From: a virus
Lineage: Duplodnaviria; Heunggongvirae; Uroviricota; Caudoviricetes
Direction: 5' to 3' (one strand)
IMG/VR virus record: IMGVR_UViG_3300017971_002799
Span: 1-64,000 of that record
Length of the DNA stretch: 64,000 bases
This document shows, one piece after another, positions 6,196-44,661 of the stretch (position 1 is the stretch's first letter; the number at the start of each line of letters is the position of its first letter). The position numbers were made by a program, and so were the translations under genes. Below the pieces are notes generated by a model, which was not told the DNA's origin, searched no databases, and saw only the letters and a program-made list of their open reading frames with translations.

Positions 6196-6207
6196 ATTAA
6201 CTCCTTT

Positions 6208-6471
6208 TTAGTAGTAGATATGTGTATGAGACCAATCACAACCAAATCTACGACAGTAAAAACTTTCGCTGCCAGTTTCGGAATTAGCATAAGACTCACA
6301 TTCCACGTCGTGACCTTTAATCCTGCATAGGGGTTTTGATATAAGAGACATGCCCGCTAACGTAACAGCAAGGCGAACATACTCTAGGAAACTTGGTTTG
6401 TCTGTAGATCTCTCGCCGAAGAAATGCTCTAGTCCTATATCCTGTTTGTACTCACTCCACGAGTAATACAT
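6208..6471 (-). CDS. hypothetical protein
   Basis: ORF track. Confidence 0.45.
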   Translation of the reverse strand: MYYSWSEYKQDIGLEHFFGERSTDKPSFLEYVRLAVTLAGMSLISKPLCRIKGHDVECESYANSETGSESFYCRRFGCDWSHTHIYY

Positions 6472-6572
6472 GAAACGTTACCTCCTTTCTTTTTATTTCA
6501 GTGTTCAACCACTGATTAAGGAGCCGAAGTAGAGAGGGTGAAGAGGCTTCGACTCCATAGATCAGGGGGTGA

Positions 6573-6866
6573 TCATTCCTGTTTTGTTGTAGTACTTCTT
6601 CTTTCTGGGTTGCGGAGATATTCTATTACTCCACTAATCTCTTCGAGTATAGAATTAAGACTGTCTTGAAAGGCGTCACTGCTAGATAGAGCAGGAGCGA
6701 TACAGTCTTTGAGATCAGTATGCAAGCGCAGACGAAAATATTCCTCAACTTCGTCTAGATTCATCTCGAAGGCTATTGAGTGCTTGATTGTAGTTGTATG
6801 CATAAAACCGGCCCAGATTTCTTTCTTTTTTTCTTCAGGGAGATTTTCCCAATCCTTTAGATTCAT
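6573..6866 (-). CDS. hypothetical protein (N-terminus similar to ORF 7510..7839)
   Basis: Its N-terminus MNLKDWENLPEEKKKEIW resembles MEFKDYDSLTEDEKRRVW of ORF 7510..7839. Confidence 0.5.
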   Translation of the reverse strand: MNLKDWENLPEEKKKEIWAGFMHTTTIKHSIAFEMNLDEVEEYFRLRLHTDLKDCIAPALSSSDAFQDSLNSILEEISGVIEYLRNPERRSTTTKQE

Positions 6867-18195: not shown

Positions 18196-18390
18196 TTAAT
18201 CTATAAATGGACACAAGTCTTCGCTCTTTTCGGATCGTGCTTTGTTTGAGATAGCAACTGCATAAACACAACAACCGTTAAGTAAGTATCGTGCTACATG
18301 CTCGCCACAAACAAGTGCATCAGGTTTAATACCCGTATGGTCAACAACTCTCCAAACGGCAGGACTTTCACACTTCCTACAACTTATCAT
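18196..18390 (-). CDS. hypothetical zinc-ribbon protein
   Basis: CRKCE...CGEH motif. Confidence 0.45.
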   Translation of the reverse strand: MISCRKCESPAVWRVVDHTGIKPDALVCGEHVARYLLNGCCVYAVAISNKARSEKSEDLCPFID

Positions 18391-18455
18391 CCGTTACCTC
18401 GCTACAGAGTTTTGAAAAGTTAACCAGGTTAGCGATCTCTAACAATATCCTAGTT

Positions 18456-19019
18456 TCATTCTAATGTCTCCTCTAACTTCGGTATACTAGGTTTCTTACT
18501 GATAATACGGTAATAGTGTTTATTCCTGATAGAAGACATATCCGTTTCGGAAGCGAGCCAAGTGTTCAGGAGTGTAGTCGTATCTGAATATAACTTGTGG
18601 TAGTTAGTAGCATCAACCTTCCATTGTCCACCAAGAATAAGCTGTACAGCGTTCATAGAGGCTTGTCTAGTAAGAAAAGGACTAGAGCTTATCAACGTCA
18701 TATTGGTATTGCTAGCTAACTCCTCCGCTTCCGATGTTATATGGTCTCTAATGCCTCGATCAGTCAATTCTTGTCTCGTCGACAGTAAGACCCTCATCTG
18801 CAGCCAGTTCTGAATCAGATCCTGAACTGCTGCGTCCAAATCTTTTCCCTCCAAGATGCCGAGGAAGTTTAACTCTATCACATTCACTTCCACTTGGGAG
18901 AATATTGTTTTCTTCATCTTGGTTGAGTGGGCTACTTTCCACGGGAAGTTGTTCACTTTCGGGTCTATCCAGGTTATCGTCTCCACTCTTATTTCCGGAA
19001 GAAAGTCTTGACTGCTCAT
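18456..19019 (-). CDS. hypothetical protein (overlaps 18760..19707 in another frame)
   Basis: ORF track; shows ordinary amino-acid composition throughout. Confidence 0.45.
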   Translation of the reverse strand: MSSQDFLPEIRVETITWIDPKVNNFPWKVAHSTKMKKTIFSQVEVNVIELNFLGILEGKDLDAAVQDLIQNWLQMRVLLSTRQELTDRGIRDHITSEAEELASNTNMTLISSSPFLTRQASMNAVQLILGGQWKVDATNYHKLYSDTTTLLNTWLASETDMSSIRNKHYYRIISKKPSIPKLEETLE

Positions 19020-19707
19020 CTACGGTCTCCTTACTCACAGGCATTAAGTAACGCCGTGACTGATTTGTTATAGTATTAACAAACACAACCCAGGCAGTTA
19101 AATGACTACTACCAGGACTGCAGTGAAACACTGAACCGATTCTCATTCTGATAAGGGGATGAAGGAAGTCCATTTTGGCGATACTTATTAAGAAGTATCG
19201 ATTATCCACTATTGACGAGTCAAGTTTAGCAAGAAGATTGTCTAACAAGGCTTGAGACTCTTCATCTGAAAATCCGAGAGGAGCAAACATTCCATCAGCG
19301 TAGTAGCCTATAGTATTTTCGGGTGTAACTTGATTTGGAACTGTTGAACAAACCCACAATTCTGGTTTGTCAACACTTAACCCGATAGCAATCTGCTTCA
19401 TAATGAAATTCCTGGCATCGGTTTCTAAACCCGTAAAGACCCAAACCCTTTCGATTGGAGAGGCGTCTCTTCTAATAGTCGGAAGCTCGGCGTGGACGGG
19501 TGCACCCCGCTCGGTTATCCCAAGAGCTTTTCTAAAAGCTTCAACCTTTCCATCATCTAAGCAAATAGCGTTGGTAGAATCAGCATAAGGACAAGAGGTA
19601 AGACCAATACGTTCTATCTCACTCCAAAGCTTTAGTTGGTATTGCTTACCAATAGCCTCAACTTGATCGGCTGCTGACATATTGGGTATGATATTGATGT
19701 TGCTCAT
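18760..19707 (-). CDS. hypothetical protein; C-terminal ~80 aa low-complexity and probably read-through into the next gene
   Basis: The N-terminal ~230 aa look protein-like; the tail SGNKSGDDNLDRPESEQLPVESSPLNQDEENN... overlaps 18456..19019. Confidence 0.4.
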   Translation of the reverse strand: MSNINIIPNMSAADQVEAIGKQYQLKLWSEIERIGLTSCPYADSTNAICLDDGKVEAFRKALGITERGAPVHAELPTIRRDASPIERVWVFTGLETDARNFIMKQIAIGLSVDKPELWVCSTVPNQVTPENTIGYYADGMFAPLGFSDEESQALLDNLLAKLDSSIVDNRYFLISIAKMDFLHPLIRMRIGSVFHCSPGSSHLTAWVVFVNTITNQSRRYLMPVSKETVDEQSRLSSGNKSGDDNLDRPESEQLPVESSPLNQDEENNILPSGSECDRVKLPRHLGGKRFGRSSSGSDSELAADEGLTVDETRID

Positions 19708-21327: not shown

Positions 21328-21615
21328 GTGAGGAAATTTGAAGTAGTTATTCGTCGAGAAACAGATGAAAGGGTTTACACTATGGAGTCCGTGACTCGCT
21401 ACGAAGCAGTTGTAAATGCAATCGCTAGCTTTATAAGCGAGTTCAGGATTGAGGGTAGACCTTATTTATTTTACCCTGGACAGAAGAGAGGTAACGAACT
21501 TGAGATTCAAACGAGGACACTAGAAAGTACAGATAAGAGACGTAGAAAGAGAACGAATCTCAAGATATATGAAGGTGCTACACCTCAAGCAGTTGTAGGA
21601 GTTGACAATGTCTGA
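21328..21615 (+). CDS. hypothetical protein, first gene of rightward block
   Basis: ORF track; lies downstream of the promoter candidate. Confidence 0.5.
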   Translation: MRKFEVVIRRETDERVYTMESVTRYEAVVNAIASFISEFRIEGRPYLFYPGQKRGNELEIQTRTLESTDKRRRKRTNLKIYEGATPQAVVGVDNV

Positions 21616-22360
21616 ATTCAAAGTAGTTGATATTAGTACAATTGAGAATGAACAGTTAGTCAATGAGCTTGCGCTAATTCAAAAAGAACAACATGATCAA
21701 GCTCTTAAAAACCTTATCACAGGAATAACTCCTACAGAAGAATTTGAAAAAGGGGAGATACCCCGTAGAAAGGGAAGAGGTGGAAAGTTCTTTCCATACT
21801 TACCTAACTGGTGGTTTATTAGAGAAGCCAACGCAGTATTCAACCGTGCTTGGGATTTTGAAATAGAAGATGTAAAGATATTCGGTCCTCCTGGTAAGGA
21901 AAAACAGGCAAGTGTGCAAGGTAGAGTAACTGTTAAAATCCCTGGACAGAAGATAACTAGAACGTATTCGGACGGTACTGTTGAAGTAATTGAGATTGAA
22001 GGCTTAACACTAAGCAAATCACAATTCGGTAGTACTGATATAAAACAGCTCAAAGATGGAAGCGGACCTGTTTCGATTGGTGATGACCTTAAAGGGGCAG
22101 CTACTGATTCTATGAAGAAGAGCCTTTCACAATTTGGTTTTGGTGCTGATGTTTACGGAATGAGAGAAGGTGACGAAGATAGCGCTGAGGCCCAAGAGGA
22201 AAGACAAAACAGTGCTGTGCTAAAGATAATGGAAGATAAGGGTATTACAGAAGAGCAAGTCGAAGAACTTAGTATGAAGCTATTCGGCAAACCTTCTACA
22301 GAACTTCCAAACACAAAAACCCTCCAGCTTATCAACGAGTTGAGAAAACTCGAAGTATAA
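21602..22360 (+). CDS. Rad52/Sak-family single-strand annealing protein candidate
   Basis: GRGGKFFPYLPNWWFIREANAVFNRAWDFEIEDVKIF resembles the Rad52 N-terminal motif GGxxLxYLxGWxVIxEANRIFGFDGW; the C-terminal tail is acidic. Confidence 0.45.
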   Translation: MTMSEFKVVDISTIENEQLVNELALIQKEQHDQALKNLITGITPTEEFEKGEIPRRKGRGGKFFPYLPNWWFIREANAVFNRAWDFEIEDVKIFGPPGKEKQASVQGRVTVKIPGQKITRTYSDGTVEVIEIEGLTLSKSQFGSTDIKQLKDGSGPVSIGDDLKGAATDSMKKSLSQFGFGADVYGMREGDEDSAEAQEERQNSAVLKIMEDKGITEEQVEELSMKLFGKPSTELPNTKTLQLINELRKLEV

Positions 22361-22853: not shown

Positions 22854-23806
22854 CAAGAGACTCTAGGTGGATTTGACAGAGTAAAAGATCTTAACCGGGT
22901 TTGATCTTGGGGTTTTGCAAGTGGGCGAACACCTTCCTTTCCGCACCGGGAAGGTTAGTAACTCACTTACTTCAAACTTTTCTTGGTTCCTATCAGTTAT
23001 TATGAAGTGCCTCCCGTACTTTTTATGTTCCGGACTGATGGGAGCCAACAAGAGCTTGAGGATCGAGACAACCTCCGAAGTTCTTGAACTCAACCTCGAA
23101 AGGGGTTGTATCACTGGGAAGAGGCTGGACCCGAGGACAGACTGGCATCCTGAGGGAATTGAACAACCGCCTTATTGTAAAGCTCTCAGGCGAATGCGGA
23201 CGGAGTGGAGTGGTGCGGGGTGAAATAGCCCGCGAGTAGGGTCCAGTCCTCACATCAACACGGCATATGGCGCTAGAGAGTAGGCGTCACCGGTAACCAA
23301 CCCGGAGATCTTGGACAACGTATCTGAGATCTAGGTTTTCGACGGAGAACCGAATTCGTGCGGGGTTTGATTCCCAGCGGCCGTGACCAGAAAACTTATG
23401 ATCGGAGGATAAAAAGGAAGGACTAGTACCCCTTCTGATTATCCCTCGGTTTTGTGTAGATACTAGTTAAGACACGAAGTCGAAATTTGCTTCCTTCCGA
23501 CGGAAGCAGTTGAGAAAGTAGGGAATAAACCCTCTCCGATCACCAATGTACATACTAGACTTGTTAACTTGGGAGTTCATAAAACTATATCTCCTAATGC
23601 AAGAACTTTTTATTACACTTGCAATACCTTATATCAAAGATCCTAAACTCGGTAACAAAATTCAACACCACTTAATCAGTTGCCAGGTGTTGAGAACGAT
23701 GAGTTTAAATGAATTACCTAGTATCGCGAGAGATAAGATACTCTGGCAAGGTAGACTAATGTTAGTACTGTTACTAGGTACAATCGTTTTCAAAGAGTTA
23801 TACTAA

Positions 23807-23881
23807 TGCAGGGTAGAGCAGAGGCAGCTCGCTTGGCTCATAACCAAGAGGTCGACGGTTCGAGTCCGTCCCCTGCTACCA
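23807..23881 (+). tRNA. tRNA-Met (anticodon CAT) with initiator-like features
   Basis: Hand-folded cloverleaf: acceptor (T)GCAGGG/CCCTGC(T), U8, D-stem GAGC/GCTC with A11:U24, anticodon stem CTTGG/CCAAG, loop CTCATAA, T-arm GACGG-TTCGAGT-CCGTC, discriminator A, encoded CCA. There is a 1:72 mismatch. Confidence 0.7.
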
Positions 23882-23882
23882 A

Positions 23883-24000
23883 GGAGTAGTGCCCGAGAGG
23901 TTAGGGTTACAGTGTCACGAGAGGGTAAACATGTGACTACTGGGGGCACCCAGTTAAAGCTGTATTAAACACGTAGGTTCGAATCCTACCTACTCCCCCA
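23883..24000 (+). tRNA. 118-nt tRNA-like gene with ~39-nt insertion in the anticodon arm (putative intron; anticodon possibly CAC)
   Basis: Perfect 7-bp acceptor GGAGTAG/CTACTCC, U8, D-loop GAGAGGTTA, canonical T-arm GTAGG-TTCGAAT-CCTAC, discriminator C, encoded CCA. The anticodon helix ACAGT/GCTGT encloses a GTCAC/GTGAC helix and a CTGGG-GGCA-CCCAG hairpin. Confidence 0.45.
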
Positions 24001-24008
24001 AGAAAACA

Positions 24009-24110
24009 GGAGTGGAGGCTTCTAATCGCACCACAGGGTTAGAACTGGTCACTGGGACTGTGGAATAATCATTCGGGAGAATGAACGAGTCAACCCAGTG
24101 AGCCTCCTAC
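24009..24110 (+). ncRNA. structured RNA element candidate (7-bp closing helix GGAGGCT/AGCCTCC with interleaved helices)
   Basis: GGAGGCT (24014-24020) pairs with AGCCTCC (24101-24107). Internal CCACAG/CTGTGG and CACTGGG/CCCAGTG helices interleave, so the fold would be pseudoknot-like. The element sits immediately downstream of the tRNA pair. Confidence 0.25.
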
Positions 24111-24266
24111 AAATGGGTGAAAGCCTTAAAGGGAGAAAATGAGACCGATTGACGCTATAGAGAAACATTGCACTTTCTGCGCAACAAGAGGATTGAGATT
24201 CTCCTGTGACCTTCAAAATAGTATTCAATACTATGATCACCCTTGTTATATGAGACATGAACACGT

Positions 24267-24719
24267 TTGTCTCAAAGCGGAAGAGGTGAGAAAAGAAATG
24301 CATCTGAGAGTAGTTGGCAGAAGTGCTCCTGTGAGGGGAAAAAGAGAGTGATAATTAATATGCCTTATATCGGTAGGGTTCTTTCTGTAAACTACTATAA
24401 AGTTTACGATCGTAGAGGAGTTCCTACAAATACTACCAAATCAGTTACACAAGACTGGATGGATACCCTAACACGATTAATTAGGGAACATCCCGAATTC
24501 GAAAGTGTTCATCATAAAGATGTTACAATAAAGTTAACAGGACATTTCAAGGATCAGCGTTATCCCGACTTACATAATCTACACAAGATAATCGGAGACG
24601 CTGTAGAGCCTGCAATTGAAGTAAATGACAAGTATATCAAGTTTGAAGACGTTGGTTCCTTTATCGGTGCAAGAGTTCCCATACTGAAAATAGAAATCGT
24701 TCCTGATAACAAAATCTAA
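24267..24719 (+). CDS. RusA-like Holliday junction resolvase (probable true start at ATG 24360)
   Basis: MPYIGRVLSVNYYKV matches RusA LPxPPSVNxYW; PDLHNLHKIIGDAVE matches RusA DxDNxxKxxxDAL. Confidence 0.5.
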   Translation: MSQSGRGEKRNASESSWQKCSCEGKKRVIINMPYIGRVLSVNYYKVYDRRGVPTNTTKSVTQDWMDTLTRLIREHPEFESVHHKDVTIKLTGHFKDQRYPDLHNLHKIIGDAVEPAIEVNDKYIKFEDVGSFIGARVPILKIEIVPDNKI

Positions 24720-25056: not shown

Positions 25057-25749
25057 ATGACAGTAAAAGCTGTTATACTATTATCTGGCGGCCTAGACAG
25101 TTCAGTAGTCGCCTACATAGCGAGGCATGACATAGGAGAGTCAGGGGATTTATATGCTCTGACTCTTTCTTATGGTCAAAGACACGAAAGAGAAATAGAA
25201 AGTGCTATGGACATCGCGAGAGCTGTCGGGGCTTGTCAGCATATTATACTCAAAGGCTTACCAATAGATGTCCTAGTTAAAACCGCTTTAACAGGGGATT
25301 TCGAAGTTCCAACAGATGGAGTCAGTGCCGAGATACCTTCTACTTGGGTTCCACAAAGAAACAGTATCTTCCTAGGACTTGCTTTCGCTCTTGCGGAGAC
25401 TGTTGACGCTCGCGCTGTTTACATAGGTGTTAATTCTGTAGACTACTCTGGCTACCCAGATTGTCGACCAGAATTCATATCGTCAGCAGAAAAGACTTTT
25501 AACCTAGCGAGTAAAAGGTTTGTAGAGAAGCGCAGAGCAATCGAGTTAAGAACTCCGATAATTAGTAAGTCTAAAAGAGATATTGTTCGTTGGGGTATGG
25601 AGTTGAGGGTTCCATTCGATTTAACTTGGTCTTGTTATCAAGGTAACGAAAAGGCCTGCGGGGTCTGCGATAGCTGTCGGATAAGAGTAGCAGCTTTTAG
25701 GAGTCAGGGATTAACAGATCCTATTGAGTATGAAGAGGTTGTAAAATGA
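25057..25749 (+). CDS. queC: 7-cyano-7-deazaguanine synthase QueC
   Basis: PP-loop LLSGGLDSS; YGQRHEREIE; C-terminal zinc motif CYQGNEKACGVCDSCRIR; size ~230 aa. Confidence 0.85.
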   Translation: MTVKAVILLSGGLDSSVVAYIARHDIGESGDLYALTLSYGQRHEREIESAMDIARAVGACQHIILKGLPIDVLVKTALTGDFEVPTDGVSAEIPSTWVPQRNSIFLGLAFALAETVDARAVYIGVNSVDYSGYPDCRPEFISSAEKTFNLASKRFVEKRRAIELRTPIISKSKRDIVRWGMELRVPFDLTWSCYQGNEKACGVCDSCRIRVAAFRSQGLTDPIEYEEVVK

Positions 25750-26069
25750 TCGATGACCCAAATCTAGTCACGGAATCACCCAAGAAAACCTTAATTGGCA
25801 AAGGCTGGTTTGCTTTTATCTTCGTGGTAGTCGTCTTAGTAGCTATCACAATAGCAGTGGGGACCTTGCCGCGAGGAGACGATTCTCCACCAAATGTAGT
25901 TTCTGCTCCGTACGAAGTCAAATCGTCTTTTGGAACCTACTATGTTCAAGGTTACCAGATTGACGACGGCATTCTTGTAATACAATTCCCCACTTTAGGT
26001 ACTCCAACGGCTGAGGATATCTTGATTATTGGGGGAGACTTCGAAATTAGGCCCAGAGTATTAAAATAA
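25746..26069 (+). CDS. small membrane protein
   Basis: TM helix WFAFIFVVVVLVAITIAVG. Confidence 0.45.
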   Translation: MIDDPNLVTESPKKTLIGKGWFAFIFVVVVLVAITIAVGTLPRGDDSPPNVVSAPYEVKSSFGTYYVQGYQIDDGILVIQFPTLGTPTAEDILIIGGDFEIRPRVLK

Positions 26070-26083
26070 AAATTTTTAGGAGG

Positions 26084-26677
26084 TTGTCCGTGTTGGACGA
26101 GCAATTTAAACAAGCCAGTAGCGATTTGGTAAGCAGCCTTAGAGAGATGTATAAAGATTGGGATGGTGTAAGTCAGTTCAATGATACAGAGAATCGACTA
26201 ATCCGATTGTTTGACGAATTCTGTTGGCCTCCCGATAAGATTGAGACTGCTTTGGATAAACACTTCAAAGCAACCTTTCCACATCAGTTTGATGAGATGC
26301 TGGTGTCAGGCCCTTTTAAAGTCTTCACTTTATGCCCACACCACTTAGTACACTGCGAACTCCAGACGACCATCGCTTATGTACCTAGTGACAATAAGGT
26401 ATTAGGCTTGTCGAAATTTATCAGAATAGCAGAAACGATGGCTCGCAGACCTATACTCCAAGAACAGTTCTGCAACGAACTTGCTTGTGAGTTTGAAAAG
26501 AGACTTCACCCCAAAGGCGTTGCTGTTTATGTCGTAGGTAAGCATGGATGCATGACTTCTCGAGGCGTTAGACAACACTCAAGAGTCACAACAAGTGTCT
26601 TAAAGGGGACATTTGAAACGCAAGCAGTAACGCGTGCAGAGTTCTTTGCCATAGCTAGAAACGGGAAGGTAGAATGA
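26084..26677 (+). CDS. folE: GTP cyclohydrolase I (FolE)
   Basis: CPHHLVHC (FolE CEHHLxPF zinc site); VLGLSKFIRIAETMARRPILQEQF (FolE GLSKxxRxVExxxRRLQVQE). Confidence 0.8.
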   Translation: MSVLDEQFKQASSDLVSSLREMYKDWDGVSQFNDTENRLIRLFDEFCWPPDKIETALDKHFKATFPHQFDEMLVSGPFKVFTLCPHHLVHCELQTTIAYVPSDNKVLGLSKFIRIAETMARRPILQEQFCNELACEFEKRLHPKGVAVYVVGKHGCMTSRGVRQHSRVTTSVLKGTFETQAVTRAEFFAIARNGKVE

Positions 26678-27630
26678 TCAGCGTTGATGAAGAACAGCTT
26701 GAGGTTGTTGAACACAAAGGCAGTACAATATGTGTTGCAGGTCCAGGAAGCGGTAAGACTCGAACATTGCTCGCCAAAGCCGAACGCCTCTACGAAAAAA
26801 ATAGAGATCTGATCTGTTTAACGTTTACAAGAGCAGCTGCTGAAGAATTAATAGACAGAATGCCAGGAATAACAGCTTCCACAATACACTCTTACTGTTG
26901 TAGAAATGTTGGTTGGAATGGTAGTTACGATAGACTTCTATTCGACTTTCAGAATCGGAAATACAAAGACAAATACGAATACGTTTGTATTGACGAAGTC
27001 CAAGACTTAACAATCGAACAAATGGATGTAGTACTCTCTATAGCTGGTGAGAAGATTTTTGCTATTGGAGACCCTTATCAATCAATTTATGGTTTTAACG
27101 GTGCTTTAGGTTTAGAAGCTATCAAAATGCTGAAGCAGTGGGGTTGTGAAGAATTTACATTACATAACAACTACCGAAGTGAACCTAAAATTGTTGATTT
27201 CCTAAACAAGATCTACGCAAGGAAGTTGATAAGTAAGGGTTTTAAAACCAATGGAAAGACAGCAATACTTTCTCGCACGAACAAGTTAGTCAAAGAGGTC
27301 TCTACACTCTTAAGAGGTTTGGGGATTGCTCATACTGTGAGATTTGGTAATGCCAGTGAGGGAGAGTCAAAAGAAACAAACTATGGCAGTGGCAACTTAA
27401 TTGTACAAACGTGTCATCAATCGAAAGGTACAGAGTTTGATTATATTCTCCTCTACAAGTGGGAACAACATCGCTTCCTTACAGACGAAGAAAAAAATCT
27501 TTTCTACGTAAGCGTTTCCAGAGCAAGTCATGGCTTTGCTCGTATATACAATAGACATCAGTTAATGGAAGCTTTAAAAACAGTAGGTCATGGCGAAAAA
27601 ACACAGTCAGGAAACTCGCAAGCGTCTTAG
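26674..27630 (+). CDS. minimal UvrD/Rep-like SF1 helicase
   Basis: Walker A GPGSGKT, motif II DEVQD, motif III GDPYQSIYGFNGA, motif V/VI-like CHQSKGTEFDYILL; lacks the 2B insertion. Confidence 0.6.
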   Translation: MISVDEEQLEVVEHKGSTICVAGPGSGKTRTLLAKAERLYEKNRDLICLTFTRAAAEELIDRMPGITASTIHSYCCRNVGWNGSYDRLLFDFQNRKYKDKYEYVCIDEVQDLTIEQMDVVLSIAGEKIFAIGDPYQSIYGFNGALGLEAIKMLKQWGCEEFTLHNNYRSEPKIVDFLNKIYARKLISKGFKTNGKTAILSRTNKLVKEVSTLLRGLGIAHTVRFGNASEGESKETNYGSGNLIVQTCHQSKGTEFDYILLYKWEQHRFLTDEEKNLFYVSVSRASHGFARIYNRHQLMEALKTVGHGEKTQSGNSQAS

Positions 27631-28009
27631 TGAAGCTGCTAAACGCCATTACGATAAGCACCCAGAGACGCGTATGCAAATAAGCCACACGCTTCGAGGC
27701 AAGCGTAAAAAACCAAATAAACAAGAAACCAGAGTTCTAAACTTCCTCAATAGAAAGTATCCAAATTGTTGGTGTTGGAATGGTGGTTGGCTAACTTTCG
27801 AAGGGAAGATACCCGATTTTATTCACGAGCCAAGTAAACTGAAAATAATTGAGTTCTTCGGTAACTACTGGCATAAACTAGAGGAAGAGGAAGAGAAAAT
27901 AAAATTCTACGCCAAGTTTGGTTACAAAGCTTTTATTATTTGGGAAACGGAGCTTGAAAACGCTTCCGGGATGGTAGAAAGACTTGATAAATTCATGCAG
28001 GAGGAGTAA
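27590..28009 (+). CDS. homing-endonuclease-like protein (NUMOD3-like N-terminus + Vsr/DUF559-type nuclease core)
   Basis: HSQETRKRLSEAAKRHY is NUMOD3-like; IPDFIHEPSKLKIIEFFGNYWH matches the Vsr-type D...E.FDG.YWH motif. Confidence 0.4.
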   Translation: MAKKHSQETRKRLSEAAKRHYDKHPETRMQISHTLRGKRKKPNKQETRVLNFLNRKYPNCWCWNGGWLTFEGKIPDFIHEPSKLKIIEFFGNYWHKLEEEEEKIKFYAKFGYKAFIIWETELENASGMVERLDKFMQEE

Positions 28010-28741
28010 ATGTTACTATCATTGGAAATACCAACGGGGATGTTAAAATTGATAACACCGTTAACGGACTTCGAATTCGCCTTAACACACCTTGTACTAA
28101 GCGATCAGGAGTATCAAAAACATTACGCGGAATCCGCAAACTTCAAAATTCTCGACAACTCTGTTAATGAAACCGGTACTCCCACCACGATTGCGGAACT
28201 GGAAGAAGCTGCGAGGATTATTCTACCAGATGTGATTTGTCCACCAGACTATTTTCTAGATGCTGACAAAACTCTGGACGCTCTAGAGGACTCGCAAGAT
28301 GTTTTCGACTTTGAAAAAATTCTACCAATTCTCCAAGGAGACTCCCACGATGTCGCTACTGATTGCGCTTGGGAAATACATAAAATGGGGTTCAACAAAC
28401 TAGCAATCCCGTATAGTATAACAAAAGATAGAAAAGCTGACTCTAGAGATAGTATGGCGGAAGCTCGTTATAACATTATCTATACTATATCTGGGCTGTT
28501 CGAGTGGATACATCTTTTGGGCGTGACTACACTAGACGAGCTCGGGGCTTATAGTGAGTTTCGCAACGTTTCCACTCTTGATACAGGAGTACCGATTACA
28601 GCTGCTTTTAAAGACTATAGCTTAGCAAGTCAAGAGTTACACCCCAAGAGTCAAAAGATGGTTTGGGATGGAGAGATTACTCCTGCGATTTGCAATCTAG
28701 CGCTCTACAACATAGCGTACCTAAGAACAGCTATGGTATAA
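28010..28741 (+). CDS. TGT-family DNA transglycosylase DpdA-like protein (paralog 1)
   Basis: FKILDNS aligns with the TGT DSGG loop; ILPILQGDSHDVATDCAWEIHKMGFNKLAIPYS aligns with TGT GIVQGGxYxDLRxxSxxxLxxxGFDGYAIGG; lies next to the preQ0 synthesis genes. Confidence 0.4.
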   Translation: MLLSLEIPTGMLKLITPLTDFEFALTHLVLSDQEYQKHYAESANFKILDNSVNETGTPTTIAELEEAARIILPDVICPPDYFLDADKTLDALEDSQDVFDFEKILPILQGDSHDVATDCAWEIHKMGFNKLAIPYSITKDRKADSRDSMAEARYNIIYTISGLFEWIHLLGVTTLDELGAYSEFRNVSTLDTGVPITAAFKDYSLASQELHPKSQKMVWDGEITPAICNLALYNIAYLRTAMV

Positions 28742-29009
28742 GAAGGTGCGGTGCCCTCGGAAGACCTAGGAGGTGTAGACCCCCGTATCACGCGATTACA
28801 TTCGCAGGGTGGAAGTCCTTTTTAAGATAACGGGTAAGGCTGCTCCTAGAGTCTGAATGTCTTGCTTGCTAGCGAAGTGAGGATATAAACTGTATGATCT
28901 AGAGACCTCGTGGGGAGATAGAATTCTCCATGCAGTTGGGTGTGCTTGGGTGAAAAGTGCCGAGCCCAATAGTCGGCCTACCGCATCTTAATGAAGAAGT
29001 GGTTGAGGA

Positions 29010-29588
29010 GTGGGAGAAAATAAAATGATTGAAGTGGAAAAAATTTATGACGACATAAGGACTGAAGGATTGTACTGTGGTACTCCTATGACCTTTGTCA
29101 AACTAGGTTTGGGTACTGAATATCCAAGCTGTAGACAGCTTCTAGAGAATGTTGTTCTCTTGGGAAGAAGAAGATGGGTTTGTCTAATCGGTGAGAATAC
29201 TACAAGAGCTGGTATAGGAAGATTCTTCGAAGGTTTAAAGTCTTTTGGTTTCTCTAGCGAGGTAGTTATTACTGGTAATAGAAAAGAGCCCGGTTGGAGA
29301 AACAAAACCACAAGCATTATAGTAGAACTCGGAGAGGAACTTCGATACGACCTTACAACTCTTAGAATGGGAGATGCTATTCGAATCTCTTTACATACTG
29401 TTGATGATGTAAAGAATATTCAATCTGTATTGGATAGATTCGAAGAAGATCCTTTCTGGAAGTTTCTCTTCATCGACCCTGTTCTAGGAAAGGGTGAAAA
29501 AAGGAATCTCGTCTTGAAACGTATGATCATGGAAGCTGCCGAAGCTGCTAACAAGTGTGAGAAAGCGAGGGTTTTCTGGAATGTTTGA
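29010..29588 (+). CDS. QueE-like paralog lacking the radical-SAM CxxxCxxC triad
   Basis: Aligns with the QueE of this window (IYDDIRTEGLYCGTPMTFVKLGLG vs [24 protein letters not shown]; RRRWVCLIGEN vs [11 protein letters not shown]; GFSSEVVITGN vs [10 protein letters not shown]), but the CNLKCKYC site is replaced by LGTEYPSC. Confidence 0.45.
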   Translation: MGENKMIEVEKIYDDIRTEGLYCGTPMTFVKLGLGTEYPSCRQLLENVVLLGRRRWVCLIGENTTRAGIGRFFEGLKSFGFSSEVVITGNRKEPGWRNKTTSIIVELGEELRYDLTTLRMGDAIRISLHTVDDVKNIQSVLDRFEEDPFWKFLFIDPVLGKGEKRNLVLKRMIMEAAEAANKCEKARVFWNV

Positions 29589-29737
29589 TATATCTTTACA
29601 CACCAAAATAAAGTACTGGATTCAAGTTAAATTAGGACAGAAGCTTTGCTCAGGTCACAAAGTTTATCCTAACGGAGTAAGTTGTCCTGGTTGTCGAGAT
29701 TGTAAGTAGATAAACAACACCAAGTAAAAGGAGTAGG

Positions 29738-30706
29738 ATGTTAGCACAAGCCGTAATAGCAACTCCGGCTGAAGAAACGCATGCACCAGGATTTTCTGTA
29801 ACACAAGCTTCCCCGTGTTCTTATGCTACCTATTTAAACTACCATAAACTGGATCCTAAAGAAAGAGACGAGAGCGCTCATCTCACTTTCGAGGACGGAC
29901 ACGAGCAGGAAGCATCAATTGTAAAACAACTGGCACGTGCAGGCTTTGCTATGCGTTTCACAGGCGAGGATCAGTTGGAAGTCAAAGTCGGACGATCCGA
30001 AGTTCCAGGACATCCTGATGGTCTTGTAACACCTAAAGCTAAAGAGCTAATGCTTGAAATCAAAGCGATGCACGACTACAGATTTCAAACTGTTAGAGAA
30101 AAAGGTCTCACATTCGAGCCTCTTATTTACAATCAAGTTCAGATGTACATGCCTGGTTTAGAACAAACATTTGGTATTAAGGTTGAAGGTACTCTCCTCT
30201 ATTGTAAGAACAAGAACACTTGCGATCCCTTTGACATGTTTGTCGAAAGAGACGATTCATATTCCAAACCCATTATCGAGGCTATGGACGAAATCATTTT
30301 AGGTAATTGGGAACCTAAACCAGAAGTTTGTCAAATATGCACGACGTGTAGACACTCTAAGTTCTGTTGGGGCGCTCCAGTCCTTGATTTTACTGGCGGA
30401 CGTGTAATAACAGATCAACAACTTGTAGAGAAATGGATGCAAGGAAAGTCTTATAAGACTATGGGTGAAGAGCTCTACGAACAAGCGAGAGAGCAGATGA
30501 AGAAGCTTCTTGGAACAGACGATGTCATCTACTTTGAAGCTACCTTTGGGGAAAATGTAATTGTTGTTGAAGCTAAGTTAACACCTACTACCTATAGAAA
30601 CTTTAGTTCTGGTAAATACGCAAAGATACACGGAGTCAAATATTTGGAAGACTGTTACAACATTACAGATAGCTTTCAATTCAGAACACAAGAGATAATA
30701 AAGTGA
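29738..30706 (+). CDS. Cas4/RecB-family PD-(D/E)xK nuclease with Fe-S cysteine cluster
   Basis: N-terminal SPCSY cysteine; HPDGLV...LEIKAM (D..E.K); C-terminal CQICTTC...C cluster. Confidence 0.5.
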   Translation: MLAQAVIATPAEETHAPGFSVTQASPCSYATYLNYHKLDPKERDESAHLTFEDGHEQEASIVKQLARAGFAMRFTGEDQLEVKVGRSEVPGHPDGLVTPKAKELMLEIKAMHDYRFQTVREKGLTFEPLIYNQVQMYMPGLEQTFGIKVEGTLLYCKNKNTCDPFDMFVERDDSYSKPIIEAMDEIILGNWEPKPEVCQICTTCRHSKFCWGAPVLDFTGGRVITDQQLVEKWMQGKSYKTMGEELYEQAREQMKKLLGTDDVIYFEATFGENVIVVEAKLTPTTYRNFSSGKYAKIHGVKYLEDCYNITDSFQFRTQEIIK

Positions 30707-31077
30707 GTCAAGATAAAATGAGATACCGACCTTCAAGAGTAACTAAATCGATTCTCGATATGAGAATTCAGGCATATGAAAATAAGGGCTTTGCTAAAAC
30801 AAAGTGGATAGAGTTCTGTGAATTGATGTTAGCTAAAGGATTCATCCTACACATGTATGAAGCGAAGTCTACAGTCTCAAAGTATATTACAGTATCTCAT
30901 CCGAGTAAGCCTGGTAAGCGTTTCAGAGTAAGATTCTCTAATCACAAACCTATTAAGCATCGTGAACTAAATGGTGATTGTGATTTCTTTGTAGGTATTA
31001 CTAACTTAGCTACTACTAATACTGAACAAGCTATCGAAGCAACTCTAAAACATTTTTCGGTTGGGGTTAATGCTTAA
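30703..31077 (+). CDS. hypothetical protein
   Basis: ORF track; start overlaps the upstream stop. Confidence 0.5.
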   Translation: MSQDKMRYRPSRVTKSILDMRIQAYENKGFAKTKWIEFCELMLAKGFILHMYEAKSTVSKYITVSHPSKPGKRFRVRFSNHKPIKHRELNGDCDFFVGITNLATTNTEQAIEATLKHFSVGVNA

Positions 31078-31294
31078 CATAGCTGACATTAGATTCGGAG
31101 ATAAGGTACACTATAAACCACCTTACTACGGCGAGGATAGGTGGGAGAATGGTAAAGTAAAAGAAATACGTTCGGATGTAGACGATGCGATATGGGTAGT
31201 ATTCCACTGCGCAGGAGAATGGGAAAGATTTACAGAATACACTGCTGCAATGACTAAAATAAAAGACCTATACCCAGGGTGGAGACATGGCTAG
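31061..31294 (+). CDS. hypothetical protein
   Basis: ORF track. Confidence 0.45.
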   Translation: MGLMLNIADIRFGDKVHYKPPYYGEDRWENGKVKEIRSDVDDAIWVVFHCAGEWERFTEYTAAMTKIKDLYPGWRHG

Positions 31295-31505
31295 CTTTAC
31301 TTGTGATAATTCGAACTGTCTTCACCAGTGGGACGACGACATCATGGAAGGTAGAATCGAATGCCCCAAGTGTGGATTGTCACGTCCTAGAGTAATAAGA
31401 GCTACCTTTATTGAGCTAAATAGATCATGTACAACAATGGAATTCAATTTCGGACCTGGGCAGAGATATGGAACCCCTGTATATCACCTTAGCCAGAACA
31501 ACTAG
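31287..31505 (+). CDS. hypothetical zinc-ribbon protein
   Basis: CDNSNCLHQW...CPKCG motifs. Confidence 0.45.
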   Translation: MASFTCDNSNCLHQWDDDIMEGRIECPKCGLSRPRVIRATFIELNRSCTTMEFNFGPGQRYGTPVYHLSQNN

Positions 31506-31686
31506 CAAGCTATTACAACTCAAAGCTTACTATACACACGAGGGAAAGCTTTATTGCTTCGACTGTGGAGTAGGTCCTACTCTTATAGAAAACAGTTTAG
31601 AGTGGATAGAGCCGGGCACTTCAGCACATGAGGCTAGTATTATAATCGATGAAGTTGAAGACTGGCTAAAGAAGCGTAAAAAATGA
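31468..31686 (+). CDS. hypothetical protein
   Basis: ORF track; CFDCG motif. Confidence 0.4.
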   Translation: MEPLYITLARTTSKLLQLKAYYTHEGKLYCFDCGVGPTLIENSLEWIEPGTSAHEASIIIDEVEDWLKKRKK

Positions 31687-31721
31687 ATTACAAGGGGAAG
31701 TATTATTAAAAGGAGGTTAAA

Positions 31722-31850
31722 ATGAATTTATGGAACTTTGGTAACAAGGGGCCGCGCTACAATCGAGGGAAGAAGTTTAAATACAACTGGGGCTTCTTCC
31801 TAATGGCAGCTGCTATCATAGGTGCCATCATTCTATTCGTAACGAAGTGA
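31722..31850 (+). CDS. small membrane protein (42 aa)
   Basis: Not in the ORF track; SD aaaggaggttaaaATG; sequence MNLWNFGNKGPRYNRGKKFKYNWGFFLMAAAIIGAIILFVTK. Confidence 0.4.
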   Translation: MNLWNFGNKGPRYNRGKKFKYNWGFFLMAAAIIGAIILFVTK

Positions 31851-31857
31851 GGAAACA

Positions 31858-32253
31858 ATGCTATATATTTGTAAGAGATTCAAATTCGATGCCGCACATC
31901 GACTACCGCATTATAACGGGCCCTGTAAAAATCTTCATGGACATACCTACTTCCTAGATGTGAAGGTAAGCGGTCCGAAACAAGTAGAAGGACCTTGCAA
32001 AGGTATGATAATGGACTTCTCCATCTTGAAGACTGTAATACAAGAGAACGTCATCAGTCTGTATGATCATAACGATCTTAATAACTTCTTTAGTAACCCT
32101 ACTGCCGAGTTAATGGTTGAACAAATCTGGTATGACATCGTGGGTCAACTCGAGTTCAAAGGGGTTGTTCTAGAGGAATTAAGACTATGGGAAACTCCTG
32201 ATAGCTATGCAGAGATGAAAAGAGATCTTCCAGGAGTTGTAGGACCTTTATAA
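31858..32253 (+). CDS. queD: 6-carboxy-5,6,7,8-tetrahydropterin synthase QueD
   Basis: FDAAHRLPHYNGPCKNLHGHTY carries the QueD/PTPS zinc motif Cx5HGH; size 131 aa. Confidence 0.8.
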   Translation: MLYICKRFKFDAAHRLPHYNGPCKNLHGHTYFLDVKVSGPKQVEGPCKGMIMDFSILKTVIQENVISLYDHNDLNNFFSNPTAELMVEQIWYDIVGQLEFKGVVLEELRLWETPDSYAEMKRDLPGVVGPL

Positions 32254-32576
32254 TGGAATTCATTCACGCTAATTGCGGCGGGGACATTAGGGATAGAGTG
32301 TGTCAAGGCTGTGGTAAAAAGTGGGGCCTTGCAGCATATATGTCTGCAACGGATATTAGACCAAAGCCTGTCAGTCGGGAGGAGAGATTGGCTAAGTTAG
32401 CTGAGAAGCCACCGAAACCTGTTACCACTTATGCTTCTTGGGCTGACAATATCCCTTTTGTTCCCGTCATAGCAAAGTTATACCCCAACTGGCCTAGGAA
32501 GTGGAGGATTTTATCCTTTGTAATCTTCTATGGGATAATCATAACAGGAATTATATATTGGATAAAAACATGTTAG
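32253..32576 (+). CDS. zinc-ribbon protein with C-terminal TM helix
   Basis: CGGD...CQGCG motif; C-terminal ILSFVIFYGIIITGIIYWI. Confidence 0.45.
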   Translation: MEFIHANCGGDIRDRVCQGCGKKWGLAAYMSATDIRPKPVSREERLAKLAEKPPKPVTTYASWADNIPFVPVIAKLYPNWPRKWRILSFVIFYGIIITGIIYWIKTC

Positions 32577-32872
32577 GAGGAAAAATGAAAAAGGGACAGT
32601 TAATCGCAAAGCTTTTCATATTCACTGCAGGTATGGTATGGATGTTACTCTTTTTGTATATCTGTATCGTTTGCTTTGACTTCTTCAGAGAAGTTATGTT
32701 TGCCTACGGTGAAATAGACTTGGATAACTGGTTTATGACTGTGCTAGAGACATGGTATTTGCTTACCTGTATCGCTAGCGGCATCTGGCTTGCTCGCAGA
32801 ATGTTTCTAGTCGTTGGAGAATGGCAAAGGGAGAAGGTAAATGGTAATGGAAACCAAAAATCCAATTCTTAA
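32501..32872 (+). CDS. small membrane protein (likely true start MKKGQL at 32586)
   Basis: Two TM helices; SD ttaggaggaaaaATG precedes the ATG at 32586. Confidence 0.45.
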   Translation: MEDFILCNLLWDNHNRNYILDKNMLGGKMKKGQLIAKLFIFTAGMVWMLLFLYICIVCFDFFREVMFAYGEIDLDNWFMTVLETWYLLTCIASGIWLARRMFLVVGEWQREKVNGNGNQKSNS

Positions 32873-33554
32873 AGTAAACGAAGTTTTTTACTCCATTCAG
32901 GGAGAAGGTCTCACTGCAGGCGAGCCTACAATCTTTGTCAGACTTCAAGGGTGTAACTTAAAATGCAAGTACTGCGATACCACTTACGCACAAAACGGCG
33001 CTAGGGGTCTTCTTATAGGTACAGACGAGATCGTTAACTTGGTAAAGTCCCGATCAGAAAATAGTGTAATCGGAAAACGCTGGGTTTGTATTACCGGCGG
33101 CGAACCTCTCAAACAAATGATAGCGTTAGGGAGTCTAGTTCCTAAATTAAAGAAAGAAGGCTTCCTTATTGAGATAGAAACAAACGGGACTTATCTAAAA
33201 CCCTCCTGGTTTAACACTATCGACTCCTGGGTAGCTGATATAAAGTGTCCCTCTTCTAACTACTCCCCAACTGAAGGCATGATAACACTTTGGTTAAACA
33301 GTAGAGAACAAGATCAAGTAAAATTCGTTGTGGATAGTCATGAAGATCTACGCTTCGTAAGAAGACTACTCACAGAAGGATTTAACAACCGAAAGTACTT
33401 CAAGCCCAAGATACTGGTTAGTCCAGCTGCTAACGAGGATGCAGAGTTTAATCGAGACTGGATGGAAGAGGTCGTCGAGTTCTGTAAAGAATTGAACATT
33501 CGATTTTCTTTACAGATACATAAACTCATTTGGAAAAATAGAATAGGAGTTTAA
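32841..33554 (+). CDS. queE: 7-carboxy-7-deazaguanine synthase QueE (radical SAM)
   Basis: [32 protein letters not shown] (CxxxCxxC); GGEP motif; size 237 aa. Confidence 0.85.
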
Positions 33555-34831: not shown

Positions 34832-35329
34832 ATGAAGTTTAAACTCACAATAGACATGATCCCCGCTTGTAACTGGGGTGAGAATCTGCATAACTATCTC
34901 GACGCTCCAATCTGGGATTCTGTTAGAAGAGAAGTCTATACTCACTTCAATCTTAGATGTGCAATCTGTGGCGCATCAAATACAAAACTACACTGTCATG
35001 AAGACTGGGATATCAATGACAAGAAGTGTGCCCAAAAGCTTAGAGGCTTTCTCGCTCTCTGCGAAGATTGTCATAACGTAAAACATTGGGGGAGAACCAC
35101 AGCTGTTATAGAACAAGGGAAGTTAGATCCCTATTACAAAATAACTCTAACTAAACACTTCTGTCGAGTCAACGATTGTGGCACAAGTGATTTTGAGAAA
35201 CACGCCGCAGAAGCTAGATCTAAATGGTCTTTTAGAGCAAACAGAAGATATAAACTGAACTGGGGCAAGTTTAGTCCCGATAGAATAACAAGGGAGTATA
35301 TGAAACAAAATGCTAAGCGAAAACGCTAA
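34832..35329 (+). CDS. HNH endonuclease-like protein
   Basis: CAICGASNTKLHCHEDWD...CEDCHNVKH (HNH His-Asn-His with zinc cysteines). Confidence 0.5.
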   Translation: MKFKLTIDMIPACNWGENLHNYLDAPIWDSVRREVYTHFNLRCAICGASNTKLHCHEDWDINDKKCAQKLRGFLALCEDCHNVKHWGRTTAVIEQGKLDPYYKITLTKHFCRVNDCGTSDFEKHAAEARSKWSFRANRRYKLNWGKFSPDRITREYMKQNAKRKR

Positions 35330-37603: not shown

Positions 37604-38317
37604 ATGGATATAGCAACAATAGCACCAAAGTCTCTCCTAAGTTTATGCGAGTTAACAAAACTACAATTATGTTACGCTGAGTTGGCTCTCAAGGACAATG
37701 AATATAGAAAGTTCTACCAAAACGTTAAAGGTATCGTTGTCTTAGACCACTCGCCAAGGATACCTAGAAAATCTCTTTCGGAAGAACACTTCCTGGAAGC
37801 AATTGAATTAATCAATCCAAATGTAATAATCTTACCAGACGTAGATTTCTCGGCTGGTACTACGGTGTCAAAATCTCTAAAACTCCTTCAGAGTATCGAG
37901 CCAAAACGTCGGGATCGCTGTGTTGGAGTATTACAAGGAACGAACTTCAAGGAAATAAAAGAGTGTTACAAAACTTTCAAGAGGCATTGTGGGATCATAG
38001 GACTAGCTTCCTCCGCTGAGAAGGTAATGCCTAGAAAACAAATAGCTGATAAGCTTAAGATAAAGAAGCTTCTCCTTTTGTTAGAAGTATTTTCAAACCC
38101 TGTTGACGAGCTCATAACCGACGAAAGATTGTTAGGAATTTGTACCTCGTATCATATACGTTTAGCTGCAGAAGGGCGTACTCTAAAAAACTACACACCA
38201 ACACCTAAACTACTCGATTTTTACGTAGACTACGAAATGCATTACGCTCTAGCAGAGCATAACCTGCAGACATATAAAAAACATTTTAAGAAGGAGATAA
38301 ATCGTGAAACTAGATGA
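37604..38317 (+). CDS. TGT-family DpdA-like protein (paralog 2)
   Basis: Aligns with ORF 28010 (L..D.EY.K.Y...LD.S....EA...I.P.VI.PDV; CVGVLQGTNFKEIKECYKTFKRHCGIIGLASS vs ILPILQGDSHDVATDCAWEIHKMGFNKLAIPYS). Confidence 0.4.
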   Translation: MDIATIAPKSLLSLCELTKLQLCYAELALKDNEYRKFYQNVKGIVVLDHSPRIPRKSLSEEHFLEAIELINPNVIILPDVDFSAGTTVSKSLKLLQSIEPKRRDRCVGVLQGTNFKEIKECYKTFKRHCGIIGLASSAEKVMPRKQIADKLKIKKLLLLLEVFSNPVDELITDERLLGICTSYHIRLAAEGRTLKNYTPTPKLLDFYVDYEMHYALAEHNLQTYKKHFKKEINRETR

Positions 38318-44061: not shown

Positions 44062-44661
44062 TTGCAAATAATGGACATCATTCCTTATGGGAAAAAGTAT
44101 CCAGACGTTACTAAGCTACTATATGACAAAGGCTATCTAAGGAGATATCCAAAACAACACAAAAGAGATGATCTACAGTACGACGATGGCATAGACATTG
44201 TCTACGATCTGAAAAACCTACCACCTGCAAAGTTTACGGAAGCATCTGACTTGTTACTACTAGCTGCCTATACAGAAGCACAAAGATATAAAGACGCTAC
44301 GTACAAATTCGCAAAGTTCATGGTGCACCTCAACAGAACAGCGCAAGGGAAAAAGCAGGTAAAGAAAGAAAGAGGTTATATAGCAAGTAGACATCGCGAT
44401 CCTGAAATCATGGTATACGGAGAACAAGGTCTTGGATACGAACTACCGGAAGAAGAGAAAAAGCCTTTCTTGATCAACAAAGTACAAGAGATACTAGGAA
44501 TTCCCGATAGCCCTAGCCCTGGTCCTTATGTCAAAAAACAACAACCATATAAAGTAATCAGACTAACAATTGGAATCAGAGCTGGCAAGATGTGGGAAGG
44601 TGTTCCAGGTCTTCTTATTCCTGGTGTGACTAATGTTAGCGAAGAAGCTACAGAAGAATGA
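44062..44661 (+). CDS. hypothetical protein; candidate terminal (priming) protein for the adjacent PolB
   Basis: The stop overlaps the PolB start (gaagaATGAaagg) and the protein is Lys/Tyr/Ser-rich. There is no sequence-level proof; the call rests on synteny with protein-primed replicons. Confidence 0.3.
   Translation: MQIMDIIPYGKKYPDVTKLLYDKGYLRRYPKQHKRDDLQYDDGIDIVYDLKNLPPAKFTEASDLLLLAAYTEAQRYKDATYKFAKFMVHLNRTAQGKKQVKKERGYIASRHRDPEIMVYGEQGLGYELPEEEKKPFLINKVQEILGIPDSPSPGPYVKKQQPYKVIRLTIGIRAGKMWEGVPGLLIPGVTNVSEEATEE

Follow-up and report, generated by a model that had tools for sequence, protein, structure and literature searches.

A predicted DpdA3-type 7-deazaguanine DNA modification module, with a conserved nucleophile-less companion, in an uncultured virus-like element

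Replacement of guanine by 7-deazaguanine derivatives is among the most effective shields that phages raise against restriction enzymes and Cas nucleases. Does an uncultured virus-like element carry such a shield, and with what machinery? The question is raised by a stretch of 64,000 nucleotides of the IMG/VR record IMGVR_UViG_3300017971_002799 (hereafter the window), which corresponds to positions 49–64,048 of the 87.8-kb metagenomic contig JGI 3300028840 Ga0309773_1000552. Its plus strand carries, between about 21.3 and 46.4 kb, a densely packed early/replication module with positive GC (guanine over cytosine) skew, in which lie genes for the synthesis of 7-cyano-7-deazaguanine (preQ0) and two small proteins related to DpdA and the tRNA-guanine transglycosylases (TGT). 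An earlier note, made from the sequence alone, took this combination to mean probable 7-deazaguanine modification of DNA with dPreQ0 (the deoxynucleoside of preQ0) or a close derivative. The proposal agrees with all the sequence tests reported here, and we think it likely that the region is a base-modification module in which preQ0 is made, a DpdA3-family enzyme swaps it for guanine in DNA, and a second, related protein acts as an accessory.

In the queuosine pathway, FolE converts GTP to dihydroneopterin triphosphate (H2NTP), QueD converts this to 6-carboxytetrahydropterin (CPH4), QueE yields 7-carboxy-7-deazaguanine (CDG), and QueC forms preQ0 through 7-amido-7-deazaguanine (ADG). All four genes stand on the plus strand where the earlier note had placed them, each with profile matches (Table 1) and its catalytic or cofactor motifs. 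QueC has the SGGLDS P-loop and CGVCDSC, FolE has CPHH (gene callers place its start at 26090), QueD has CKNLHGH, and QueE has CNLKCKYC and GGEP. Measured against the NCBIfam equivalog cutoffs, QueC and (narrowly) QueD pass, and FolE and QueE match but fall short, QueE matching five NCBIfam QueE models that all score below cutoff (TIGR04349, E = 2e-40, under its trusted cutoff). Acting in turn, FolE, QueD, QueE and QueC would take GTP to preQ0.

The protein predicted to use this preQ0, which we denote paralogue A, is encoded inside the cassette, 1.3 kb downstream of FolE. It has no match in Pfam, the TGT family PF01702 staying unmatched at E ≤ 0.01; it matches the NCBIfam DpdA model weakly (E = 1.8e-5) and two PHROGs of unknown function. 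Searching deposited phages with tblastn returned 21 records at 23–27% identity over nearly the full length, from Campylobacter firehammer-type, Cellulophaga phiST-type, one Chryseobacterium and one Weizmannia phage (CP20/CPt10, E = 7e-9; CP220, 1e-7; phiST, 6e-7). The matched phiST protein is CGPG_00065 (locus tag confirmed), the founding DpdA3, which was named with its Campylobacter homologues by Cui, Hutinet et al. 2023 (PMC10516641). A hidden Markov model (HMM) of the A family, built from 23 metagenomic relatives only and no phage proteins, recovers CP220 gp056 at 1.3e-37 and phiST DpdA3 at 3.3e-32. Judged by these sequence comparisons, paralogue A is a member of the DpdA3 subfamily.

Structural comparison points to the same family. 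Against all PDB sequences, the A-family profile has a single match, 7ui4, the Salmonella DNA preQ0 insertase DpdA; a broader A-family profile again puts 7ui4 at the top, over four chance-level matches. In the alignment with 7ui4, with residue numbering corrected for a 20-residue tag offset, Gln109-Gly110 of paralogue A corresponds to His181-Gly182, the second leucine of its HLLG motif (Leu170) to Leu236, and Asp191 to Asp256, the DpdA nucleophile, mutation of which abolishes exchange (PMC10164549). Two further residues, Asp49 of the LDNS motif and Asp80 of PD, do not vary across the A family and lie at strand ends in the AlphaFold2 model. The model is confident, with a predicted local distance difference test score (pLDDT) of 93.7, and among PDB structures Foldseek gives the first four places to TGT or archaeal-type TGT (arcTGT), including 2ash, 7a4x and 1j2b. 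Paralogue A is a bare TIM barrel. Its family has no invariant Cys/His cluster and, given also its length of 243 residues, we conclude that it has neither the zinc subdomain nor a PUA-type tRNA-binding domain; both window paralogues are about 240 residues long, compared with 360–580 in the TGT/arcTGT chains matched by fold. Profile and fold thus bear out the initial placement of this open reading frame (ORF) in the TGT/DpdA family without tRNA-specific parts, and narrow it to DpdA3.

From these correspondences, paralogue A is the predicted inserter of a 7-deazaguanine base into DNA. It would exchange guanine in the element's DNA for preQ0 by the double-displacement mechanism of TGT enzymes, with Asp191 as the nucleophile, Asp49 as the general acid/base, Asp80 and Gln109-Gly110 reading the base and Leu170 stacking on it. 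The product would be dPreQ0 DNA, or DNA with the amide form, dADG, if QueC releases its amide intermediate, or with the aminomethyl form, dPreQ1, if a host QueF acts on the precursor. DNA substituted with dPreQ0 or dADG would be expected to resist restriction enzymes and other DNA-targeting defences. A DpdA gene is present in every phage known to have 7-deazaguanines in its DNA, and full modification, with 100% of guanine replaced, was seen in all three DpdA3 phages that have been tested (PMC10516641). By analogy, extensive replacement is plausible here, because the DpdA3 phages analysed to date are fully substituted.

Which base is inserted should depend on what follows QueC, and here the relatives of the element are informative. 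We recovered seven related uncultured contigs, three of them IMG/VR viral genomes, and scanned their loci (L005–L008 and L010–L014) with the family HMMs and the window proteins. The clade shares the order QueC, FolE, DpdA3 (A), QueF, a second, divergent QueC in some members, a QueE-like gene in some, a Cas4-like nuclease, QueD and QueE, followed further on by ribonucleotide reductase (RNR), TSCPD or dUTPase genes, paralogue B, a gene fusing uracil-DNA glycosylase (UDG) to PolA, and a protein-primed PolB. DpdA3 directly follows FolE in L005, L012, L013 and L014 and is near it in L006 and L007. Because seven relatives keep this order, the spread of the cassette among other genes is the normal layout of the clade; the earlier note had called it unusually fragmented, a description that does not hold for an arrangement conserved in at least seven related viral contigs.

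In all seven relatives QueF comes after DpdA3; at that place the window has a 283-nt non-coding gap (28742–29024). Searching the whole 64 kb by tblastn with four QueF and four second-QueC proteins of the relatives found neither gene, tblastn with phiST DpdL found no DpdL, and no Gat-QueC or ArcS was found in the window, as had been read initially from the sequence. Pfam scans of the plus-strand block at 21.6–46.4 kb gave no QueF, glutamine amidotransferase (GATase) or formyltransferase match, DpdN itself not being among the queries. Beyond the window, where genes called up to contig position 70,021 (about 6 kb) were checked through their Pfam matches on record, there was again no QueF, second QueC or other tailoring gene. 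The 283-nt gap was also considered as a possible site of a preQ1 riboswitch, of another structured RNA or of what is left of a QueF gene, and all three were rejected (tblastn and Rfam negative; folding z-score −0.73). As QueF is present in seven of seven relatives and missing here, we predict dPreQ0 or dADG in this element and no dPreQ1 derivative: the window is most likely a QueF-less variant that ends at preQ0, and bases of the dPreQ1 type are the most likely product in the rest of the clade. The second QueC, about 23–27% identical to the canonical one, stands soon after QueF in four loci (L005:11166–11801, L006:12628–13329, L007:13532–14296 and L010:1263–1907), was not detected in L012–L014 and is missing from the window; its role may be to tailor a base of the preQ1 type. 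At L007:11161–12743, QueF is split in two by a 327-amino-acid ORF, which looks like a mobile endonuclease inserted in a pathway gene.

As a system, the module falls within an already known type, 7-deazaguanine modification of DNA with DpdA3. For the seven QueF-bearing relatives, the nearest characterised counterpart is the Flavobacterium phage immuto, which has DpdA3, a self-encoded full preQ0 pathway, QueF and DpdN, whereas the window is without QueF and showed none of the formyltransferase-type domains that DpdN would be expected to match. The founding DpdA3 phages CP220 and phiST (dADG and 2′-deoxy-7-deazaguanosine (dDG), at 100%) encode full-length homologues of paralogue A at 25–27% identity with the same short, TIM-barrel-only architecture; in contrast to them, the window has a canonical QueC that scores above the TIGR00364 cutoff. 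A canonical QueC without QueF is a combination seen in no characterised DpdA3 phage. The same four-enzyme preQ0 supply is found in the DpdA1 phages Escherichia phage CAjan and Enterobacteria phage 9g (25–32% dPreQ0 or 2′-deoxyarchaeosine (dG+)), and CAjan carries dPreQ0, the base predicted for the window; however, the window transglycosylase falls in another subfamily, and DpdA1 modification is partial and sequence-dependent. Unlike the window protein, DpdA1 matches the Pfam TGT family. The DpdA of Salmonella Montevideo, with which paralogue A shares the His/Gln-Gly, Leu236 and Asp256 elements, has about 410 residues, with a large segment inserted behind Asp256, depends on the ATPase DpdB and modifies under 0.1% of guanines (PMC10164549), whereas the window proteins have about 240 residues and no DpdB was found.

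The second TGT-like protein, paralogue B, stands apart from the cassette, among the replication genes. Searches of Pfam, PHROG and NCBIfam gave no match for it, tblastn of the protein and of the B-family consensus against 50,697 deposited phage records detected no B paralogue, and a single-protein search of IMG/VR found none. A word-indexed protein search had made it appear an orphan, a result overturned by an exhaustive phmmer search of 1.8 billion cluster representatives (of clusters built at 50% identity), which returned 206 relatives, 57 of them at E < 1e-10 and 23 at E < 1e-30 with 30–45% identity. Paralogue B is about 22% identical to A (BLASTP, E = 8e-8), matches the A-family HMM at 8e-22 and aligns to that family over 223 columns by hhalign (99% probability, E = 6.3e-18). 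Its AlphaFold2 model has a pLDDT of 87.9, and for both paralogues the best structural match in the PDB, and the sole credible sequence-profile match, is DpdA 7ui4. Paralogue B is thus a full-length DpdA3 homologue with the TGT/DpdA fold, in a separate sister family that we denote B. The profile searches that the earlier note had set beforehand as its test place both proteins in the TGT/DpdA family.

The active site of B is nonetheless altered throughout its family. When 35 members were aligned with DpdA3 proteins, the column of the Asp191 nucleophile held Cys, Val, Ala, Trp, Gly or Thr in 35 of 35 and never Asp (Cys in the window protein). His168 is replaced by a hydrophobic residue and Gly171 by Glu or Asp in 31 of 35, so that HLLG becomes a hydrophobic-hydrophobic-L-E pattern, and the base-recognition Asp80 column holds Ser, Asp, Asn, Gly or Cys. 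The column of the general-acid Asp49 is Asp in 32 of 35, and QG is retained. Judged from these columns, classical double displacement through the Asp191 equivalent cannot take place in B. We therefore file B as a sister family and do not count it as a second classical transglycosylase; of the initial reading of this ORF, membership of the TGT family stands and classical transglycosylase function falls. B retains the fold, the Asp49 equivalent and QG, with the nucleophile lost and a conserved Glu gained on the neighbouring strand.

B is also conserved in its own right. The family has nearly invariant residues of its own (Y24, D48, R55, T87, G112, C121, E139, R144, E169, P184 and R186) and is clearly under selection. 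Its gene lies upstream of UDG-PolA in L008, L010, L011 and L014 as well, a position conserved in at least five contigs, and A and B share a contig in four genomes (the window, SRR6963352_25826, ERR12799405_1212 and IMGVR_UViG_3300011013_002204); we saw no long contig with A or B that was demonstrably without the other. Most likely, B is a conserved accessory of the module: a partner without catalytic activity, or an enzyme that has taken on a new function beside the replication genes. The eukaryotic QTRT1–QTRT2 heterodimer offers an analogy only for a possible A/B pairing, as its substrate is tRNA and as B has kept a conserved acidic residue on the neighbouring strand and so is possibly still an enzyme. 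Since B keeps its place next to the replicase, and since DpdA3 by itself failed in Escherichia coli (PMC10516641), we hypothesize that B could be the missing factor of DpdA3. More specifically, and more tentatively, B might be an undescribed functional component of DpdA3-type systems, either a QTRT2-like partner for processive, replication-coupled insertion or an enzyme with the nucleotide pool or the modified base as its target. The literature on DpdA3 that we found, the 2023 paper and a preprint, describes neither a second, nucleophile-less paralogue nor a cluster-less QueE paralogue.

Where B lies bears on a different route, which we regard as unlikely but as the best of the alternatives: one or both DpdA3-like proteins might carry out base exchange on free (deoxy)guanine nucleotides, with B in this pool step, and the polymerase might then incorporate the modified deoxynucleoside triphosphate. 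Such a route would explain complete replacement, and B is always found among genes of nucleotide metabolism and replication, with TSCPD/RNR or dUTPase upstream and UDG-PolA downstream. The phages offer parallels: CP220 DpdA3 lies between an HD-phosphohydrolase/ATPase and a thymidylate kinase, phiST DpdA3 is two genes downstream of a gene with an HHpred match to dUTPase or MazG, cells infected with CP220 contain the ADG nucleoside in their cytoplasm, and an enzyme acting after replication does not usually achieve 100% replacement (PMC10516641). However, all characterised TGT/DpdA enzymes use polymers, the authors of the DpdA3 paper themselves prefer post-replicative insertion (PMC10516641), no kinase or pyrophosphatase specific for deazaguanine nucleotides was identified in the window, and gene neighbourhood is weak evidence within a replication module.

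It is still less likely that B is a functionless, decaying duplicate beside a single working DpdA3. The loss of the nucleophile and of HLLG and the low identity to A are what such decay would leave, but the 57 representatives at E < 1e-10, the B-specific invariant residues, the intact full-length ORF, the well-predicted model and the position kept in at least five contigs all argue against it. Least probable of all is that preQ0 feeds queuosine or archaeosine in the tRNAs of the host or of the element, for although the same four enzymes serve tRNA modification and the element encodes tRNAs, the 243-residue paralogue A has neither the zinc subdomain nor the tRNA-binding C-terminal domains found in TGT of bacteria and archaea, does not match PF01702, has the DNA enzyme DpdA as its only credible PDB profile match and is closest in sequence to the DpdA3 of phages with modified DNA.

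We thus favour insertion of preQ0 into DNA by DpdA3, with B as an accessory, and several points weigh against it. DpdA3 activity has never been shown in vitro or in a heterologous host, attempts in E. coli having failed (PMC10516641). In CP220 and phiST the pathway ends before preQ0, and the authors consider the DpdA3 of those phages "unlikely to insert preQ0" (PMC10516641), so that its substrate specificity here is a prediction only. The equivalence of Asp49 to DpdA Asp95 and of Asp80 to Asp130 is inferred from motif order and strand position rather than from a direct TGT alignment. The absence of QueF covers the 64-kb window and about 6 kb of called genes, with the remaining 17.7 kb of the contig outside, and a QueF there or from the host would give a different product. 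The sequence of the element comes solely from metagenome assembly. Finally, no recognisable capsid, portal or terminase gene was found in the window, PHROG and Pfam scans of ten large minus-strand ORFs for such genes being negative, and since no structural gene was recognised, to speak of virion DNA is an assumption; the viral identity of the element follows from its gene content and from the listing of three relatives in IMG/VR.

Within the cassette, a second enzyme has a degenerate copy. The QueE-like protein is 28% identical to the window QueE over 126 amino acids (BLASTP, E = 3e-8) and retains the N-terminal EGL..G.P..F and WVC..G segments; in the alignment, a stretch of about 28 residues with the CxxxCxxC cluster is deleted and the C-terminal SLQxHK segment is gone. 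Without that cluster in its sequence, it cannot be a radical-SAM enzyme; within the cassette it may serve as a binder of deazapurines or be a pseudo-enzyme. Five of the seven relatives have a homologue at this position (L005:13428–13970, L007:16788–17309, L010:3089–3616, L012:12812–13492 and L013:14301–14849); another candidate, L010:2255–2776, proved unrelated on alignment. The module thus has two pairs of an enzyme and a degenerate paralogue (DpdA3 and B; QueE and the QueE-like protein), and some relatives add a third, formed by QueC and its second copy.

The other genes that the initial reading had seen within the cassette (a helicase, an endonuclease-like ORF, a Cas4-like nuclease and small Cys-rich ORFs) are likewise present. 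In L010 and L014, too, a homologue of the UvrD-like helicase adjoins the cassette. No other ATPase lies close by in the window, and any part that the helicase plays is speculation. The 139-amino-acid ORF next to it has neither Pfam nor PHROG matches; it is 33% identical to the 327-amino-acid ORF that parts the two QueF fragments in L007, its sole relative in the examined loci and only partly homologous to it, and is possibly a mobile, homing-type endonuclease with putative NUMOD3-like/Vsr-like motifs. The Cas4-like nuclease lies between the QueE-like gene and QueD and is syntenic in six of the seven relatives (L005, L007, L010, L012, L013 and L014); it may have a part in the module.

Table 1. 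Features of the window, with positions numbered from its first letter
Feature	Position	Strand	Support
tRNA-Pro(tgg), 103-nt intron at 37/38	12676–12872	−	ARAGORN
SPFH/Band-7 protein	13071–14597	−	
Rad52-like annealing protein	21602–22360	+	
tRNA-Met, ordinary, adjoining tRNA-Leu(taa)	23807–23881		
tRNA-Leu(taa), 40-nt insertion	23883–24000	+	ARAGORN
RusA-like resolvase	24267–24719	+	
QueC, preQ0 synthase	25057–25749	+	PF06508 E = 3.8e-65; TIGR00364 194.4 bits (cutoff 150.3)
FolE, GTP cyclohydrolase I	26084–26677	+	PF01227 E = 1.5e-37; NF006826 E = 2.8e-39, under curated cutoff
Short UvrD-like superfamily 1 (SF1) helicase	26674–27630	+	PF00580 E = 9.8e-26; PF13245 E = 2.2e-21
139-amino-acid ORF, possible homing-type endonuclease	27590–28009	+	
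Paralogue A, DpdA3-family guanine transglycosylase, 243 amino acids	28010–28741	+	tblastn, HMM, PDB profile, fold
Degenerate QueE paralogue, no CxxxCxxC cluster, no C-terminal segment	29025–29588	+	BLASTP against window QueE
Cas4-like PD-(D/E)xK nuclease	29738–30706	+	phrog_1990 E = 2.6e-18; PF01930 E = 1.3e-7
Small Cys-rich ORFs	31287–31686 and 32253–32576		
QueD, 6-carboxytetrahydropterin synthase	31858–32253	+	PF01242 E = 4.2e-31; TIGR03367 89.7 bits (cutoff 89.25)
QueE, radical-SAM 7-carboxy-7-deazaguanine synthase	32841–33554	+	phrog_2076 'QueE-like radical SAM' E = 1.2e-51; PF04055
HNH endonuclease, directly upstream of class II (B12) RNR	34832–35329	+	phrog_5200 E = 2.8e-27
Paralogue B, DpdA3-like, 237 amino acids, between class II RNR and UDG-PolA genes	37604–38317	+	hhalign, HMM, fold
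UDG domain, 3′–5′ exonuclease and PolA fusion, 793 amino acids	40033–42414	+	
Short divergent thymidylate-synthase-like protein, 216 amino acids	43330–43980	+	PF00303 E = 1.4e-9; phrog_160 1.9e-15
Protein-primed-type family B DNA polymerase	44658–46391	+	PF03175 E = 2.9e-34

The element and its relatives are very far from every cultured phage. A megablast search of the whole cassette against the 50,697 deposited phage records gave zero matches, and thus no nucleotide similarity, and the window PolA is at most 28% identical to deposited phage PolAs. The two DNA polymerases, of different families and 2 kb apart, are kept as a pair in L008 and L014. The thymidylate-synthase-like protein, in which the PF00303 match covers profile positions 111–216 only, is a candidate pyrimidine hydroxymethylase and could thus point to a second base modification. 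Outside the replication module, the window encodes TMEM260-like (55577–57034) and Wzy_C-like (54219–55439) membrane proteins.

The host is hinted at by the tRNA genes (Table 1). The two insertion-bearing tRNA-like genes, in which the insertion lies at or near the anticodon loop, score 30.3 and 34.2 bits with Rfam. Introns at the canonical position in tRNA point tentatively to an archaeal host, as does an AglB/STT3 gene that one relative carries. The strong GGAGG Shine–Dalgarno sites do not discriminate between bacteria and many archaea, the RNR has Thermotoga maritima class II RNR as its nearest PDB relative and gives no host information, and a locus search of 185,579 reference genomes with the DpdA3 alignment found none, so proviruses give no clue to the host. 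Upstream of the tRNA-Met/tRNA-Leu pair and spanning it, 1.4 kb (22854–24266) has no convincing ORF, and tRNAs are the only Rfam families found there. In the relative L008 (SRR6963352_25826), two regions between the modification and polymerase genes (422–6842 and 14070–19534) encode an STT3/AglB-type oligosaccharyltransferase, glycosyltransferases, sugar epimerases/dehydratases, a B12-radical-SAM protein and a polysaccharide flippase-like protein.

DpdA3 is the subfamily tied to complete replacement of guanine, with its substrate and mechanism unproven and reconstitution having failed. The relatives described here form a natural series differing in QueF and the second QueC, and so provide a handle on what DpdA3 inserts, and two conserved and undescribed companions, B beside the polymerase and the QueE paralogue without its Fe–S site, are candidates for the "missing factor" of DpdA3. 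If the host is archaeal, DpdA3 would extend past bacteriophages; and if B is a functional component, then, together with the cluster-less QueE, it would mean that a clade of viruses, possibly archaeal, runs a deazaguanine pathway made of enzyme/pseudo-enzyme duplicates.

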